DNA of 64,000 nucleotides, from the IMG/VR virus record IMGVR_UViG_2654587994_000003, positions 32,001-96,000 of that record. One strand, given 5' to 3'. Both the position numbers and the translations under genes were made by a program. The notes beneath the pieces are model-generated. The model made no database searches. It saw only the letters and a program-made list of their open reading frames with translations, and was not told the DNA's origin. Shown here one piece after another: positions 10,880 through 47,812 of the stretch (positions are counted from its first letter, which is position 1; each line of letters starts with the position of its first letter). Source of the DNA: a virus (taxonomy: Duplodnaviria > Caudoviricetes).

Positions 10880-10956
<77 letters not shown>

Positions 10957-11574: not shown

Positions 11575-11651
11575 GGCCCCTTAGCTCAACTGGATAGAGC
11601 AACTGCCTTCTAAGCAGTAGGTCGCAGGTTCGAGTCCTGCAGGGGTCGCCA
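11575..11651 (+). tRNA. tRNA-Arg(TCT); integration site of prophage B
   Basis: GGCCCCTTAGCTCAACTGGATAGAGCAACTGCCTTCTAAGCAGTAGGTCGCAGGTTCGAGTCCTGCAGGGGTCGCCA is a full cloverleaf; AT-rich phage-like DNA follows immediately. Confidence 0.97.
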
Positions 11652-23122: not shown

Positions 23123-23291
23123 TTTCGACATCCCCGGCCTTCTTGATGGCCTTGGCATTTGCTGCGGCCTGTTCGTCTTTTGCCGCGGAGCGCCCTGCCC
23201 TCTGGCCATACAAAAAGACGCCCGCGAGGATCGCGAGCGCCGTACCGATTGCGGCTAGATAGCCTTTGAGTTTTGCCCACAAGAGGATCAA
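23052..23291 (-). CDS. Inner-membrane spanin (Rz-like)
   Basis: N-terminal TM, helical C-terminal domain, directly after the endolysin. Confidence 0.65.
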   Translation of the reverse strand: MILLWAKLKGYLAAIGTALAILAGVFLYGQRAGRSAAKDEQAAANAKAIKKAGDVENEIRNLDDAGVDDALGKWMRDKR

Positions 23292-24214
23292 ACCACCACC
23301 TCCTTCCCGCGCCAGCTATTCCAGCGGCGAGCGATGACATCGCGATTGCGATAGGCGACATAGGCAACAGCAGCGACAGCGACGCCGGCGACGATCCACC
23401 ACCATGGAAGGCCTGCCACGAAAGCGAGTAAGCCTGAGCTTGCAGCTGAGCCAACACCCTTCGTGACAGCTTCCCTTGCTGTCGATGCGTCGCGCCGAAG
23501 CTGTGCGAGCGTGGCGGGACCGATGATGCCATCGGCGATCAGGTGTGGGTGCGCCTTCTGATACGCGATCACAGCGGCCTTTGTCTTCTCGCCCATCCAG
23601 CCGTCGATGGCGCCGGGATTGAGGCCAGCCGCAGTCAGCAGCTCCTGCGCTTCCTTCACAACCGGATCAGGCTGGGCGGGCGGCTCGGCGGTAGCCTCCT
23701 TGGTTGCGCTACCTACGCCGGTGTAGATGCCCTTTTCGAAGAGCAGGGCCTCTTCCTTGCGGCGGCGCACGAGACCTGGAAGCTTCTTGCCTTTCGCCGT
23801 GTTGTAGTTGGAGGCAAGATGAGCAGCTGCCTTCTTAATCTGGCCTTTGCGCCAGTAGTCGGCCCATGTCCAATTCATGGCGCCGACGCCGAGATTGAAG
23901 GTGACAGAAGTGGCCGCGTCGAGCTCGTGCTGCTTGCGGTCCGCGGGAGAACCGGCAACGACAGCTGGCACGTACTCAGCGGCGAGCACAGCGTCGAGGA
24001 TGGCATCGCTTTGCGCAGCTGTGATCTTGGTCTTGCCTGGCACGAGCTTCGTGATGCCGATTTTGGCCAGCTCGCGGCGAACGGAATCGCTGCGCATCGT
24101 GAATCCGGTTCCGATCGTCGGAACACCGACAGGATCAAGGTAGGCGGTAAGCGGATTGCCCTCATGCAGGCGCACGAAAGCCCTCCCCTGTGTGGAGATT
24201 TTGGTGATTGGCAT
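23288..24214 (-). CDS. Endolysin: GH24 lysozyme + PG-binding domain + TM
   Basis: HEG....AYLDPVGVPTIGTG (E-8aa-D-5aa-T triad), FNLG, LPGLVRRR..EA.LF; IDG..G..T..AV...Q PG_binding_1 motif. Confidence 0.93.
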   Translation of the reverse strand: MPITKISTQGRAFVRLHEGNPLTAYLDPVGVPTIGTGFTMRSDSVRRELAKIGITKLVPGKTKITAAQSDAILDAVLAAEYVPAVVAGSPADRKQHELDAATSVTFNLGVGAMNWTWADYWRKGQIKKAAAHLASNYNTAKGKKLPGLVRRRKEEALLFEKGIYTGVGSATKEATAEPPAQPDPVVKEAQELLTAAGLNPGAIDGWMGEKTKAAVIAYQKAHPHLIADGIIGPATLAQLRRDASTAREAVTKGVGSAASSGLLAFVAGLPWWWIVAGVAVAAVAYVAYRNRDVIARRWNSWRGKEVVV

Positions 24215-24240
24215 TGATTTTCCTTTTTAAGGGAGCGCTG

Positions 24241-24265
24241 GGAACATTAAGGCGGCCTTCGCGTT
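24241..24265 (+). promoter_or_regulatory. EcfG/RpoE2-type promoter driving a short non-coding transcript
   Basis: GGAAC-N16-CGTT. Confidence 0.65.
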
Positions 24266-24270
24266 GAAGC

Positions 24271-24338
24271 CGTCGCCATGTCCCCAACTCCATGGCCTAA
24301 AGACCCGCGCACACATCCCCCCGCTGCGCGGGTCTTTT
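24271..24338 (+). ncRNA. Candidate EcfG-dependent sRNA with two C-rich loops
   Basis: Hairpin GCCATG-tccccaactc-CATGGC, then terminator AGACCCGCGCA-cacatccccccgc-TGCGCGGGTCT-TTT. Confidence 0.55.
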
Positions 24339-24380
24339 GCTGCTATTGATACAGCCGATACTTGCAGATATGGGAGAAGC

Positions 24381-24455
24381 GCCGCACGTCCCCTGAAACA
24401 GGCTGCGGTATTGAGGCCTCGGCGCTTGCGAGGAGCGACGGGCCTCTTTTGTTTT
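24381..24455 (+). ncRNA. Structured 75-nt RNA, copy 1 (sRNA or attenuator)
   Basis: Two hairpins plus U-tract; TTGATA-N17-TATGGG promoter at 24346-24374; 68/75 identical to copy 2. Confidence 0.65.
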
Positions 24456-24539
24456 GTGGGTTATGGGTGCCGGGTTACGCTGCCTGCTCCAGGGTCATTC
24501 ACCCTCCGTTCAGGCCCGGCACAGCACTATCGAGCTTGT

Positions 24540-24564
24540 GGAACCGAAGTCACAGGCGCACGTT
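24540..24564 (+). promoter_or_regulatory. EcfG/RpoE2-type promoter of lipoprotein moron
   Basis: GGAAC-N16-CGTT 27 bp upstream of ATG 24591. Confidence 0.65.
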
Positions 24565-24590
24565 TGATTGCGTTATTGGGAGATAAGATC

Positions 24591-24851
24591 ATGAAGCTTC
24601 TGACCGCAGCAATTGCGCTCGTATCAGTCGGTATTCTTAGTGGATGCGTAGATGATAGCGGATATCGCTCAGGCGGGTATTACTCGTCGGGTGTCTATTA
24701 TCGCTCATACGATAGAGACAGGTATTACCGGGATTACGACCGCCGAAACTGGCGTCACCACAGAGAATGGCGCGATCGGCGGGAAGGAAGGGGTGATTAC
24801 CGCTACCGCCCGCCGCGTGATGGCCAGTTATATGGCCGTCTGATTAATTGA
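24591..24851 (+). CDS. Small Arg/Tyr/Asp-rich lipoprotein (moron)
   Basis: Lipobox LSGC after a signal peptide; SD GGGAGA; low-complexity mature part. Confidence 0.75.
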   Translation: MKLLTAAIALVSVGILSGCVDDSGYRSGGYYSSGVYYRSYDRDRYYRDYDRRNWRHHREWRDRREGRGDYRYRPPRDGQLYGRLIN

Positions 24852-24874
24852 CAAAGTCTCGTTGTTTGGTTGGC

Positions 24875-24907
24875 CTAAACGGCCGGCCAAGCGATGGGAG
24901 CGATTTC
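24875..24907 (-). pseudogene. Remnant of the 3' end of the tail-fibre-assembly gene
   Basis: Encodes EIAPIAWPAV*; 21/23 nt match to 25946-25968 (EIAPIAWP). Confidence 0.65.
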
Positions 24908-25068
24908 CGTTCGTATTGACCGTCTTAGTTTGGTCGGACTGCACTGATCCGACATAGCCGCCCTAGTGACCAAACATAAGGTCAAGAGCGACGGGAAGCG
25001 TTTCCCGAGCCATGATAGTCTCCTGATTGTTGATTTGACGGCGAGACAGTTGGTCACCATACCAGAGC

Positions 25069-25143
25069 GCCGCGCGTCCCCTGAAACAGGCTGCGGCATA
25101 GAGGCCCAGGCGCTTACGAGGAGCGACTGGCCTCTTTTGTTTT
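25069..25143 (+). ncRNA. Structured 75-nt RNA, copy 2
   Basis: TTGACG-N17-CATACC promoter at 25035-25063; compensatory C-G/A-U change versus copy 1. Confidence 0.65.
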
Positions 25144-25290
25144 GCGGATCAGGCTAAGCCGTCGCTAACCCCCTGAATTTTAGTGGGTCATAATTCACGC
25201 CATAGCTGTTTATTTTGCGAAGCGCCGACAATTTTCCGTTGTCTTCAGCATTCCTAATATGTCAATAAGGAGGCGGAAAAGGGGCGTTTT

Positions 25291-25932
25291 ATGGATCGGC
25301 AAATTCTCTTTCACTGTCGCAGGTTAGCAAATATTGTTGGAGCGGGCCCAAAACGCATAGCGCTGGTCGGCAACGGCGAAAACGCTCGCGGATTTGGCTC
25401 CGAAATCGACTCTCACGATTTCGTGGTACGGATGAACCGCGCAATTCATTTCGGCGAAGCAGGCACAAAGACAGATGCTTTAGCAGTCATTAATTGGAGC
25501 GGGCCCGGTCGATGGATGACCAACGGAGAAACCCCCATCAACGCCGAAGCTTTAAGGGCGGCTAAATCGATCTGGCTACCAATGCCTCCTGAGGATATGG
25601 AATCCGTGAAAAATGACCAACCAGGCACCTTTGAGTGGCCGACGTACGTCGACTTCACGTCAGAGGTGATAGATAATCTGGTTGACGGACGTCCCTATAT
25701 TAAGTTCCCACCGAATATTTGGCGGTCTCTAACAAAAGAACTTCGCGGCTTAGGGGCGGCCAAGACGCAGGCCTCCAGCACTGGAGCACTCGTGCTGGCT
25801 TACTTGGTTAGGGTTTGGCCTAGATCAAAAGTCACGCTTTATGGCTTCACTCACGAGGGGTGGGATGGGCATCCTTGGGAGCAAGAGAAGGCGTGGATCC
25901 GGAATCTGGATCGAGTCCCGTATAAGCCATAG
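25291..25932 (+). CDS. Glycosyltransferase family 29 (sialyltransferase)-like moron
   Basis: Sialylmotif-like IALVGNG...G.EIDSHDFVVRMN, SSTG, LYGF, H.W..E. Confidence 0.75.
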   Translation: MDRQILFHCRRLANIVGAGPKRIALVGNGENARGFGSEIDSHDFVVRMNRAIHFGEAGTKTDALAVINWSGPGRWMTNGETPINAEALRAAKSIWLPMPPEDMESVKNDQPGTFEWPTYVDFTSEVIDNLVDGRPYIKFPPNIWRSLTKELRGLGAAKTQASSTGALVLAYLVRVWPRSKVTLYGFTHEGWDGHPWEQEKAWIRNLDRVPYKP

Positions 25933-26406
25933 CTACAGTATGATTGGCCAAGCGATGGGAGCAATCTCGTCAAGGAACTTCTCGACGGTCGGCTGCGCGC
26001 GCTGGCCCGCCTGCACTTTGGCCAACTCGCCGTAGGAGTACCGCCAAACATTATCGCGCCATGCGACGAAAGCCATAGCCTCTGCCGCCCACCTTGGAAT
26101 TGTTGACCCGATGTAGGAGGCGAGCGTCACGCCGTCGCGGAACTGCTTCTCACGCGCAGTCTCATCGACAAGGTTCTGGATGGCGTTTTCGTAGTCGGTG
26201 ATGGTGGGTGGCGCGGCGGTCGACTCGACCACGACAACCTCCCCATCCACGTAACGACGACTACCGGAATTTTCCAGAAATTCGAGGTGCTGCCCTTCTG
26301 TGATAACAACTGCGTCCGTTGGGATGACTGCTTCTGGATCGCTGCATGCCGCCGTAACCCAGAAGCCGAGCGGAAACCCCAACTCATCGAATTTTGCATA
26401 GATCAT
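25933..26406 (-). CDS. Tail fibre assembly-like protein
   Basis: IP.DAV.IT...H..., LASY..S..P.W..EA.AF..WRD.VW motifs; follows the tail fibre gene. Confidence 0.7.
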   Translation of the reverse strand: MIYAKFDELGFPLGFWVTAACSDPEAVIPTDAVVITEGQHLEFLENSGSRRYVDGEVVVVESTAAPPTITDYENAIQNLVDETAREKQFRDGVTLASYIGSTIPRWAAEAMAFVAWRDNVWRYSYGELAKVQAGQRAQPTVEKFLDEIAPIAWPIIL

Positions 26407-27923
26407 GGCGCCAGTCCTATTGCTATCCAGTCGACTCTGGCCGCTCCAGACCCGAACGCGGCACCAGTAGACCCAATCTTGCAGGAAACTATTACCCCGG
26501 TTGCCTGAGGCCAGGGGCTTGTTCTGTATTGAGATAAAACAAGATTACCTCCAGCCGTTGCACTTTCCCCATTCCAGCAAACAAAGTTGTAAGACGATGA
26601 TGAGGAAAACGCGGTTGGAAACGTAACGATTCCATTTCCTGCGCCATCGGTTGTTATTACGGTCGTTCCCCACTGCATCAACCGGCCGTTCGGCAGCTTT
26701 GTCCAGCCTGTGCCTGATGTCGCCCCCATGGTTGCAAACATCGTCGCGCCATCAGCGTCATCGAGCAGCGAGCGCGCCAATGCCGTGAGATCGGTCAACG
26801 ATGCTGCACCAGCTCCTGTGAAATACGGAAGCTTGTTGGCGGCGGGCGTCAAAGCATGAAGAGCAGCAATCGCACCGGTGATAGCCTTGATGAGCTTCCC
26901 AGTGGTCGTGTCGAACGCCACAGGGAAATTGTCGACCGCACTTGACGGCCCGACAACATCACCCGTGCCCGACCCATCCGTGCCTTTGCGCGCCAGCAGA
27001 CGCCAGTAGGCATTACTCTCGGTCGGCAAGGTCGGAGGCGCATTGCCCGTGGTCGGCTGGAGCGCAATCCACGTGGAGCCGTTATTGAGAACGATATCAT
27101 TCGCAGCATAAGCCGTCGCAGCACTGTACGCGCCGCGATCCACCACGCCCTGAGTGCCGGAGCGAGCGAACAGCAGCCATTGTGTGTTCTCGGTTGTCGG
27201 AATCGTCGGCGGCGCGTTGCCCGTCGTGGCAACCTTGGCGATCCACGTCGATCCGCCATACTGCACGATATCGCGGATAGCGTAGGCCGTGCCTGCGCTA
27301 TAGTTGCCGCGCTGATTAACGCCAGCAGGACCGACAGGACCAGTGATATAGGACGGCGCACTCCAGTCACCCGACGTGGCCGAGTTCTTGAAATAGAGCG
27401 CAGACCGGCCGTCTCCAATGTCGATAACGAGAACGGAGAAGCCAGCGGCAGCGCCGTTGTATGCCGCCCTGCCCGCAAGGTTCGCCACCCAAGCATCATA
27501 CTGAACGCCCTGAACCAGAGCCGCCTTGTTGATCGTGCCAAACACACCCGGTCCAATGCCAATCGGAATATCATCGGTGCCAACCGAGATTTCAGACAGG
27601 CTGTCGAGGTTGCCATTCGACAACGAAGCCAGCAGCCGGCGCATGGCCTCGACTGCGGCAATCGTTGGCGAGGTCAGTTCGACCTTGTAAGGCGCGTCCG
27701 TCTGCGCAGGACCGGGCCAATCATCAGCAAGCAACAGTTCCGTATCGCTGATGATCTGCTCGATAACGATCGGGCGGCCGACATGAATGCCAAACTTGTC
27801 TCCAACCTTGATCGGCGTCAGACCAGCAACTTCCGTCAGCCAGCCCGTATCCGTGCCGGTGACAGTGCGAGAGCCGACAGCAACGGTAGCCGTACCGTCG
27901 CCGTACCATGTGGTGTTAGCCAT
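26403..27923 (-). CDS. Tail fibre protein
   Basis: GPVGP collagen-like linker, two 58-aa repeats, ANKLPYFTG, C-terminal gp53-like GWTKLPNG..QWG. Confidence 0.85.
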   Translation of the reverse strand: MANTTWYGDGTATVAVGSRTVTGTDTGWLTEVAGLTPIKVGDKFGIHVGRPIVIEQIISDTELLLADDWPGPAQTDAPYKVELTSPTIAAVEAMRRLLASLSNGNLDSLSEISVGTDDIPIGIGPGVFGTINKAALVQGVQYDAWVANLAGRAAYNGAAAGFSVLVIDIGDGRSALYFKNSATSGDWSAPSYITGPVGPAGVNQRGNYSAGTAYAIRDIVQYGGSTWIAKVATTGNAPPTIPTTENTQWLLFARSGTQGVVDRGAYSAATAYAANDIVLNNGSTWIALQPTTGNAPPTLPTESNAYWRLLARKGTDGSGTGDVVGPSSAVDNFPVAFDTTTGKLIKAITGAIAALHALTPAANKLPYFTGAGAASLTDLTALARSLLDDADGATMFATMGATSGTGWTKLPNGRLMQWGTTVITTDGAGNGIVTFPTAFSSSSSYNFVCWNGESATAGGNLVLSQYRTSPWPQATGVIVSCKIGSTGAAFGSGAARVDWIAIGLAP

Positions 27924-31498: not shown

Positions 31499-32034
31499 CA
31501 CAGAGGGATCCAAGTTTTCATCCGTCTGATCATGCGAATGTTTGCTGACGTCACACCAAATCGGCGGGCCACATGCGGATTCGGTTCAGAAGACTCTCGG
31601 ATATCGTAAACATCATCCCAGGTCAGCTTTCGGAGGTGCGATCGTTCGCCCCTGTTATGAGTTCCATGGCACTCTCGGTCGCGCTGATTTTCGGCTGGAG
31701 TAGCCCAGCGCAAATTCTCGGGCGTATTGTTTGTAAAGTCCCCGTCATTGTGCGCGACCATACTCTTCTCAGGCGTCGGCTGCGGCCCATTAAACGCTGC
31801 GCAAACGAGCCTGTGGACATATCCCTTGAATGATCTACCCTCTGCTTGCATGCGGACCGTCGCGTACCCATCGCGATAATCAAACTTCATGATGGCACCG
31901 CGTCGGCGCACTGTCGTTGTCCGACCGTCGCCGTAATCTCGCGTTACCGTTCGATCTACGGAGCGAACACGCCCAAGGTTCGAAACCTCATAGAATCCTT
32001 CAAAGCCGCAGACCGGCAGCCAAGCCTCAGCCAT
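31498..32034 (-). CDS. NUMOD4-HNH homing endonuclease
   Basis: W.PV.GFEG.YEVSNLGRVRS (NUMOD4), VHRLV..AF, H.DG...NN...NL.W.T..EN (HNH_3). Confidence 0.92.
   Translation of the reverse strand: MAEAWLPVCGFEGFYEVSNLGRVRSVDRTVTRDYGDGRTTTVRRRGAIMKFDYRDGYATVRMQAEGRSFKGYVHRLVCAAFNGPQPTPEKSMVAHNDGDFTNNTPENLRWATPAENQRDRECHGTHNRGERSHLRKLTWDDVYDIRESSEPNPHVARRFGVTSANIRMIRRMKTWIPL

Positions 32035-47735: not shown

Positions 47736-47812
<77 letters not shown>

Follow-up and report, generated by a model that had tools for sequence, protein, structure and literature searches.

Prophages of enterohaemorrhagic Escherichia coli (EHEC) encode short anti-sRNAs (sRNA, small RNA), among them AgvB and AsxR, which according to Tree et al. 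(2014, PMC4104026) are 51 to 60 nt long, are encoded in the late region of temperate prophages, where they occupy a conserved moron insertion site, and occur in more than one copy per genome. The same authors describe these RNAs as having terminators of their own and a conserved 3' part joined to a differing 5' part, the latter complementary to an sRNA of the core genome. By analogy, and with no claim of homology, they appear to be the closest known kind to the elements described here, E1 and E2, which are two near-identical predicted sRNA genes of about 75 nt in a 64,000-nt stretch of DNA from a virus of the class Caudoviricetes. This stretch, hereafter the window, covers positions 32,001 to 96,000 of the IMG/VR provirus record IMGVR_UViG_2654587994_000003, which is 108.5 kb in length.

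The family to which E1 and E2 belong, here called family E, resembles the EHEC anti-sRNAs in its short length (about 75 nt versus 51 to 60 nt), its terminator, its moron site, its multiple copies and a 5' part complementary to a putative core sRNA. The occurrence of E-type, U-type and second tandem units, which are described below, also parallels the conserved-3'/variable-5' organization given there. Family E differs from the EHEC RNAs in its alphaproteobacterial host, in its location between tail-fibre and lysis genes and antisense to the late operon rather than 3' of PR', in that the host chromosome itself carries a copy, and in being known here from sequence alone.

The ar14 "cuckoo" RNAs are sRNAs of the Rhizobiales that carry CCUCCUCCC loops, as described by Reinkensmeier and Giegerich (2015, PMC4615179). 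Family E shares with the ar14 RNAs the adjacent hairpins, a C-rich, unpaired motif resembling an anti-Shine-Dalgarno sequence and the several copies per genome, but its motif is UCCCCU and forms part of a bulge and stem, in place of the CCUCCUCCC loop. The sole ar14 match, at 20.3 bits against a cut-off of 58.8, fell on a neighbouring hairpin (24204-24339) and not on E. In Agrobacterium tumefaciens C58, genus-specific trans-encoded sRNAs of 70 to 160 nt with sigma-70-type promoters have been reported, and the C58 sRNA C7 is described as 157 nt long, unique to Agrobacterium and enriched with Hfq (Wilms et al. 2012, PMC3384568; Moller et al. 2014, PMC4201532). Phage regulatory RNAs in alphaproteobacteria are almost unexplored, and family E, which is well delimited and comprises over 50 naturally occurring variants, has a constant position in phage genomes, a chromosomal counterpart and two concrete, testable candidate partners.

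The explanation that we favour, with a probability of roughly 0.5, is that E1 and E2 are stand-alone sRNA genes of an Agrobacterium family that act in trans by base pairing. Each gene would comprise a sigma-70-type promoter, a two-hairpin transcript of about 75 nt and an intrinsic terminator, and the family would be specific to Agrobacterium, where temperate phages would carry it at the tail-fibre/lysis junction and where it would also reside on a plasmid and in the host chromosome. Pairing would take place through a near-invariant C-rich stretch of hairpin 1, CGUCCCCUGAAACA. The best candidate partner would be the 5' end of a chromosomal small RNA, here called X, and the second candidate the ribosome-binding site of ihfB, the gene for the beta subunit of integration host factor (IHF). 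The phage copies would then either raise the dosage of a host regulator or imitate this regulator.

Structure, distribution and promoter-like sites of family E

A repeat search of the window identified an 82-nt direct repeat (24378-24459 and 25066-25147) with 90% identity, which is beyond chance because of its length, its identity and its homologues elsewhere. Within this repeat, E1 (24381-24455) and E2 (25069-25143), both on the plus strand, were aligned with 7 differences, which confirmed the 68 of 75 identical positions given in an earlier note on this DNA, and they were the sole copies within the provirus record. The statement in the same note that all 7 differences are wobble-neutral, unpaired or compensatory was borne out by the alignment and the folds. 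In hairpin 1, A-U is replaced by G-U at the innermost pair of the outer stem and G-U by G-C at the first pair, whereas a double change in hairpin 2 replaces C-G by A-U; the remaining single-base differences affect one linker base, one loop base and one base at a bulge or edge.

The minimum free energy (MFE) and centroid structures of both copies agreed with the two-hairpin architecture that had been described previously. In E1, hairpin 1 spans 24381-24409 with the near-invariant core at 24387-24400, hairpin 2 spans 24413-24446 and the U-run 24447-24455, while the corresponding parts of E2 are located at 25069-25097 (hairpin 1), 25075-25088 (core), 25101-25134 (hairpin 2) and 25135-25143 (U-run). 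A stable hairpin followed by TTTTGTTTT at the 3' end of both copies has the form of an intrinsic terminator. The proposed alternative pairing between CGUCC and the terminator was present in neither the MFE nor the centroid structure of E1 and E2, these being the two fold types computed.

Family E was delineated with a covariance model (R1) built from 15 sequences, for which matches were accepted at E<=1e-5. This resulted in 57 matches with 53 distinct sequences; the covariance-model scores of E1 and E2 were 96.6 and 92.4 bits, respectively. The model matched 21 of 48 genomes of Agrobacterium species, with 1 to 4 matches per genome, and 2 of the 151 genomes in a family-wide sample, both of which were Agrobacterium. 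The type strain of A. pusense has a near-identical copy. BLAST searches placed E in Agrobacterium phage Rivra and in Rhizobium phage RR1-A, the latter a single phage represented by two accessions, with nothing annotated under the match, and a search with E1 matched one plasmid, pAtCFBP6625b from Agrobacterium. E was furthermore carried by 23 IMG/VR contigs, of which 5 were from a first exact-pattern scan and 18 were strong model matches among the 23 contigs that matched the pattern in a second viral scan. The covariance model gave no match for L065, L069, L070, L071 and L074, which were dropped as E carriers. A pattern scan of the genome collection gave 22 matches, 7 of which were true copies, while 15 were chance matches in unrelated organisms and lacked hairpin 2.

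Searches against Rfam 15 identified three tRNAs only in the whole window at the gathering score, and at E<=10 over positions 24200-25300 the sense strands of both copies were free of matches. The overlaps observed were at noise level, namely a match of 14.1 bits that extends over 15 nt of E2 and a match to RT-19 on the opposite strand (17.5 bits). Likewise, tRNAs alone passed when 12 related chromosomal and variant loci were searched, and a literature search by motif string and topic found no published account of this element or of an Agrobacterium phage sRNA. The RNA family is thus absent from Rfam, as had been suspected, and the finding is real and, judged by its sequence features, most probably represents a small-RNA gene family outside that database. 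A further candidate explanation, a mimic of a clustered regularly interspaced short palindromic repeat (CRISPR), was rejected, as no CRISPR-DR family matched E and arrays of E-like units were absent at 1 to 4 matches per genome.

Among the 53 distinct sequences, 96.4% of the cells were paired compared to 34% to 56% with the partners slid, in an alignment that was fitted to the covariance model and hence favours the structure. Changes on both sides were seen for 7 pairs, a value reached by 0 of 500 shuffles. The covariation was mainly located in the outer stem of hairpin 1 and in hairpin 2, as illustrated by the outer-stem pairs 2-40 (CG 24, UA 15, UG 14) and 6-36 (GC 34, AU 13, CG 2, GU 1). 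Covariation in hairpin 1 had been set beforehand as the test against a plain terminator, and it was found. The stems, the top of hairpin 2 and the flanks vary, whereas the inner part of hairpin 1 is nearly invariant and contains the C-rich stretch CGUCCCCUGAAACA, which is partly unpaired in a UCC bulge and an AAA loop. Its 13-nt core, GTCCCCTGAAACA, was exact in 21 of the 29 matches of a genus search in which no pattern was used.

The promoter-like sites with 17-nt spacers that had been noted ahead of each copy were recovered when read from the sequence. The site of E1 (24346-24374, plus strand) consists of TTGATA (24346-24351) and TATGGG (24369-24374) and ends 6 nt before E1, and that of E2 (25035-25063, plus strand) consists of TTGACG (25035-25040) and CATACC (25058-25063) and ends 5 nt before E2. 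To compare the family, the 50 strongest copies were grouped by their 45 upstream bases, such that the groups were less than 80% identical to each other. The motif TTGNNN-N17-TANNNN, ending 5 to 8 nt before E, was present in 22 of the 29 upstream groups and in 42 of the 50 copies, as compared to 189 of 19,999 random positions of the same loci (0.9%). The spacer was always 17 nt in these hits and was unrelated in sequence between groups. In E2, RR1-A and L062, the motif was replaced by TTGNNN-N17-CATA, with the same TTGACG-N17-CATA type in RR1-A (L003) as in E2. We regard this conserved promoter geometry as the strongest indirect argument that E may be a transcription unit of its own. A U-run is present in most family members and is absent in about ten copies of the L072/L067 type.

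The earlier note had spoken of a prophage sRNA family. The family, the covariation in hairpin 1 and the promoter geometry are in line with that description; the restriction to prophages is not, as E is also located at a fixed chromosomal site and on a plasmid.

Candidate partners of the constant core

In each of three genomes searched, the exact complement of the E core occurred only at the copies of E and at one further locus, X. The core CGUCCCCUGAAACA is a perfect complement of 14 to 15 nt to the 5' end of X, which is a conserved sRNA-like gene of about 140 nt confined to Agrobacterium (L086:1002-1150, plus strand, with homologues in L088-L115). X has a promoter-like site, CTTGAC-N17-TTAGAT, and a terminator at its end. 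The complement of the E core is carried by the loop and the 5' arm of its 5' hairpin, and the fold includes a covarying second hairpin and further hairpins, with a folding z-score of -3.81. The first 26 nt of X were identical in 27 of 28 sequences, and X also carries TTTCAG-N7-CTGAAA. It was identified in 27 of the 48 Agrobacterium genomes, including all 21 that were positive for E. Of the 201 genomes in the family sample, 2 carried X, none of the phage and plasmid records searched did, and Rfam gave no match at E<=1. The neighbouring genes, named by eye, are similar to a gene for a branched-chain amino-acid-binding protein and to a NUDIX/DEAD-box gene pair.

The promoter, terminator, fold and conservation suggest that X is an expressed sRNA. 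A type I toxin-antitoxin system, with E as the antitoxin and X as the toxin mRNA, was considered and rejected: the only open reading frame (ORF), with a TTG start and 29 to 30 codons, is broken by 1-nt indels among the 28 homologues. As single-base indels exclude a coding frame, X was taken to be noncoding. The C58 sRNA C7 resembles X in size and taxonomic range when the published descriptions, rather than the sequences, are compared, and might be the same RNA.

Cofolding of E with X placed the duplex at the predicted site. The ddG values (change in free energy, in kcal/mol) were -11.1 for E1 and -11.2 for E2, compared to -6.6 and -6.5 for shuffled sequences (standard deviations 2.7 and 2.6), which is suggestive of pairing between E and X. 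Whole-length duplexfold energies were set aside, since that method forces long duplexes.

The second candidate partner, ihfB, is indicated by the prophage variant L058, in which two positions differ from the canonical core. The altered core is complementary to the ihfB ribosome-binding site, which precedes the GTG start by 4 nt, without a mismatch over 13 nt, and its complement occurs only once elsewhere in the genome of this variant, at the ihfB site (L119, G046:C12). Through one of the two changes, L058 loses a base pair of its own hairpin. The ddG of L058 with ihfB was -19.2, compared to -7.9 for shuffles (standard deviation 3.6), and 1 of 150 shuffles reached this value. The ihfB site is conserved across the genus: its core, TTCAGGGGGC, was present in 28 of 28 loci where the start was found, whether or not E was present, and the longer TTTCAGGGGGC in 27 of these. 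The canonical core pairs with the ihfB site over 11 contiguous positions, one G-U pair included, and the canonical hairpin 1 alone performed better than shuffles, 7 (E1) and 5 (E2) of 300 being as good.

Because the sense word UUUCAGGGG is common to X and the ihfB site, X could compete with the ihfB mRNA for E. A three-part circuit may be drawn up on this basis, although we judge it quite unlikely to apply in full. Acting as an anti-Shine-Dalgarno sRNA, E would reduce the translation of ihfB, X would be a target mimic that soaks up E with its 5' end, and prophages with one or two extra copies of E, some of them retuned to ihfB, would set the IHF level of the host. That level would in turn control the integration or excision of the prophage itself, late transcription or the success of superinfecting phages. 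Should the pairing take place in vivo, the phage would have copied a host sRNA to enter the host sRNA network, which would extend the anti-sRNA idea to a plant-associated genus and link riboregulation to IHF, a host factor central to the biology of temperate phages.

Several observations weigh against the view that E is an sRNA gene acting on these partners. The folding energy of the single sequences was ordinary, with z-scores of -0.81 and -0.83 and with 43 and 42 of 200 shuffles folding as well. The -10 element of E2 (CATACC) is poor and fails the TA-start rule of the family promoter test, and a stock sigma-70/terminator scan, in which the terminator search requires an unbroken stem, called neither the promoters nor the terminators of E1 and E2. 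The share of exact cores among the distinct rows, 43 of 53, is inflated because exact patterns containing the core were used to collect about half of the copies, and the figure from the pattern-free search is the fairer one. Assembled contigs, as opposed to reads, from four RNA-seq runs were compared with the window. The whole stretch was contained in a 28.8-kb, DNA-like contig in runs X1 and X5, while the RNA-library contigs of runs X9 and X10 span only 24584-24910 (in X10 also 25972-26092) and stop short of E, the missing cover over E not being evidence.

With regard to X, the energy advantage was modest, with 12 of 200 shuffles as good for E1 and equally many for E2, and the chromosomal copy of E gave a ddG of -9.1 with 32 of 200 shuffles as good. 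At full length, the canonical E1 and E2 paired with ihfB no better than shuffles (67 and 48 of 150). There was no covariation between E and X or between E and ihfB, because both partners are invariant. The finding of X is post hoc, because the search started from E, and the co-occurrence of E and X is confounded by phylogeny; furthermore, five X-positive genomes remained E-negative when searched again. The variants L040 and L010, the latter being the plasmid copy, break the complementarity to X. L040 has compensatory changes within its own hairpin, and a partner search with it identified only its own locus at 0 mismatches. On balance, we consider it probable, with good support from the comparative evidence, that E is a real sRNA gene, whereas its action through the core seed on X and/or ihfB is put forward tentatively and at somewhat less than even odds. 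The complementarities lend moderate support to a mechanism through X, and perhaps ihfB, that we infer from them.

The tail-fibre/lysis junction and rival explanations

The genomic context of E was surveyed in 24 viral loci, 19 of which contained an upstream ORF of at least 90 codons on the other strand with its start within 320 nt. In 17 of these 19 loci, E points away from the start of a cell-wall hydrolase gene, and the hydrolases are of at least 4 unrelated catalytic types (Phage_lysozyme 13, Amidase_2 1, Muramidase 1, GH108 1 and a PG-binding domain only 1). On the downstream side, a tail-fibre-assembly-like gene was identified in 12 of 27 loci. This gene is convergent with E and ends 23 to 34 nt after it in L005, L062 and L033, where no moron follows E, whereas in nine loci the gap from E to the next late gene is 166 to 2781 nt and is filled by morons of varied size. 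The hydrolase layout and the downstream late gene imply that E is a constant component of the tail/lysis junction, oriented against the late operon and with morons gathering immediately downstream. The interval between the endolysin and tail-fibre-assembly genes, in which E is located in the window and in related phages, is thus a recurrent moron site. If the pairing is not real, E would still mark the lysis/tail junction and the moron insertion site in Agrobacterium prophages.

In one rival explanation, E is a cis-antisense lock on the lysis cassette, pairing perfectly with any late read-through transcript upstream of the endolysin gene and triggering cleavage or transcriptional interference, such that the lysis genes are silent in the lysogen or lysis is timed. 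The divergent hydrolase genes of the 17 loci, with their several catalytic families, and the same layout in the window agree with such a lock, as does the lack of a U-run behind the hairpin on the antisense strand of E, which would allow late transcription to pass through E. A lock of this kind could do without a conserved sequence, but the core stays the same in phages whose flanks are unrelated. Moreover, the chromosomal and plasmid copies have no adjoining lysis gene, and E is located outside the endolysin ribosome-binding site, starting about 55 to 165 nt away. We consider this explanation unlikely as an account of E, but it is compatible with a role in trans, and both roles may coexist. 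The near-invariant bulge and loop next to a covarying outer stem could also be accounted for if hairpin 1 were the binding site of a phage or host protein, such as an antiterminator of the N/boxB type or a global regulator, and the palindrome CCCYGAAAYTCRGGG together with TTTCAG-N7-CTGAAA in X makes a common recognition word conceivable. The boxB hairpin of the lambda nut site, which serves in N antitermination, has a short stem and an A-rich loop and is located just downstream of a phage promoter. In hairpin 1 of E, however, the G and C that flank AAA can pair to give a triloop, and a terminator follows at once, with no gene behind it in several loci. The word shared by E and X is 14 to 15 nt long and of opposite sense, which fits pairing and exceeds a typical protein site, and L058 breaks a pair of its own hairpin while gaining complementarity to ihfB. 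A protein site therefore seems a rather improbable explanation.

The suggestion in the earlier note that E might be a leader or attenuator of the downstream morons, in which the moron would be expressed from the promoter of E whenever some signal permits read-through of the terminator, was based on the arrangement in the window. Each copy does precede a different moron gene on the same strand, with gaps of 135 nt for E1 and 147 nt for E2, and a same-strand gene likewise follows E in Rivra and in the plasmid. The varied morons that accumulate behind E in the nine loci with gaps of 166 to 2781 nt, and the copies of the L072 type without a U-run, also speak for it. As a general function it did not hold up: E faces a convergent neighbour in RR1-A (there the next annotated gene), in L005, L062 and L033 and at the chromosomal site (tRNA-Pro), with no same-strand gene downstream, and the downstream genes are unrelated to each other where they occur. 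Three loci have no downstream moron, and E is therefore not a dedicated leader; in addition, neither the MFE nor the centroid structure contained an alternative fold. We assign it a low probability. Finally, E might act at the level of DNA, as a module-junction boundary that promotes phage recombination or as an operator, with an ordinary terminator and a functionless RNA. This would explain the high identity between unrelated DNA on both sides, the junction duplication in the window with its remnants of both flanking genes, and the joining of different endolysin families to the same element. It is at odds with the compensatory changes that keep the stems paired and the promoter geometry that is kept with unrelated spacers, with the retention of E at a non-phage chromosomal site in many species, and with the constant 14-nt stretch amid varying neighbours, which a linker leaves unexplained. 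We regard it as very improbable, and the stand-alone sRNA acting in trans is retained as the preferred explanation.

Junction modules of the window and relatives of E

The order of features in the window is spanin genes and endolysin gene (minus strand), a hairpin with a C-rich loop, E1, an ORF for 86 amino acids, a 23-nt remnant, a remnant ORF of 16 codons, E2, a gene similar to glycosyltransferase family 29 (GT29), a gene at the tail-fibre-assembly position and the tail-fibre gene, the last two on the minus strand. E1 and E2 head two tandem junction modules from two phage lineages. The DNA upstream of E1 and E2 is unrelated because the copies derive from these two lineages and not from a local duplication. 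The earlier term "duplicated" is thus appropriate for the presence of two near-identical copies and not for their origin, as the copies have different junction modules, promoters and flanks that were joined by recombination.

The endolysin gene (23288-24214, minus strand) is transcribed away from E1 and was identified by matches to Phage_lysozyme (3.7e-22) and PG_binding_1 (2.8e-13) in Pfam and to the PHROG 7 endolysin (1.1e-64). Between its start and the E1 promoter, there is a separate hairpin with a C-rich loop and a U-run (24302-24338, plus strand), which was called as a terminator-like site in the stock scan. The hairpin is kept in all loci that share the upstream context of E1, and a second C-rich stretch precedes it. 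The surrounding region (24204-24339, plus strand) gave sub-threshold matches to 6C (32.4 bits, cut-off 47) and to ar14, as mentioned above. This hairpin may be a further small RNA, antisense to the 5' untranslated region of the endolysin gene, or just a terminator.

The moron downstream of E1 is the ORF for 86 amino acids (24591-24851, plus strand), which has a lipoprotein-like N-terminus and no Pfam or PHROG family, and its region is the one covered by the RNA-library contigs of runs X9 and X10 (24584-24910). It is followed by one copy of a 23-nt repeat (24885-24907), which is 91% identical to 25946-25968 and is left over from the 3' end of a tail-fibre-assembly-like gene. The presumed remnant ORF of 16 codons (24963-25013, minus strand), read from the sequence, has a Shine-Dalgarno motif and is located where the endolysin starts in other such phages. 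A block upstream of E2, TCTCCTGATTGT...TTGAC, is common to L003, L006, L068 and others, in which the ORF codes for a cell-wall hydrolase.

The moron downstream of E2 is a GT29-like gene for 213 amino acids (25291-25932, plus strand), with a match to the Pfam family Glyco_transf_29 (1.2e-09, 38.5 bits compared to a cut-off of 23). The product is sialyltransferase-like and is a candidate for modification of surface polysaccharides by the lysogen. The next gene (25933-26406, minus strand) encodes 157 amino acids, is convergent with E1 and E2, contains the second repeat copy (25946-25968) in its 3' end and is located directly downstream of the tail-fibre gene (26403-27923). The name "tail-fibre-assembly" rests on position only, because no Pfam or PHROG family was assigned to the 157-amino-acid product. 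It was also noted that the 23-nt direct repeat brackets a segment of 1061 nt (24908-25968), which contains E2 together with the GT29-like gene and has the first repeat copy at its left edge. In a contig of run X10, position 24910 is joined directly to 25972; this related sequence thus lacks the segment, indicating that the prophage junction is polymorphic.

In many Agrobacterium species, E is located at a fixed chromosomal site, downstream of a cysN-like ORF (sulfate adenylyltransferase subunit, named by eye) and before a convergent gene for tRNA-Pro(CGG). About 100 nt upstream of the chromosomal E there is a weaker paralogue of 68 nt, here called U, with covariance-model scores of 16 to 27 bits (L049:1331-1398, plus strand; same place in L038 and L043-L054, and also in L041). 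U differs from E in its first hairpin and resembles it in the terminator hairpin. A search of this tandem locus against the plasmid collection gave no match at E<=1e-3. The word CGCUCCGCCAAGCG in the first hairpin of U is the exact complement of the top of hairpin 2 of E, CGCUUGGCGGAGCG, in the same genomes; two extra exact matches of this word (G001 C8 and G018 C1) were unrelated by eye and were taken as chance. The palindrome CCCYGAAAYTCRGGG is situated between U and E on the chromosome.

In some proviruses, E lacks the U-run and is followed about 40 nt later by a second unit, such that a longer transcript with both units may be produced. The first hairpin of this second unit is C-rich and unlike that of E, whereas its second hairpin is of the E kind, and the unit scored 27 to 40 bits with the covariance model (L067:4269-4341, L084:4826-4898, L080:1212-1285 and L083:1864-1937). 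No complement to its loop was found at a site consistent across genomes. The comparison of E, U and the second unit indicates that the family is composed of a shared 3' hairpin and several kinds of 5' hairpins.

The three tRNA genes of the window, at 10883-10956 (minus strand), 11575-11648 (plus strand) and 47739-47812 (minus strand), are possible markers of prophage attachment sites.

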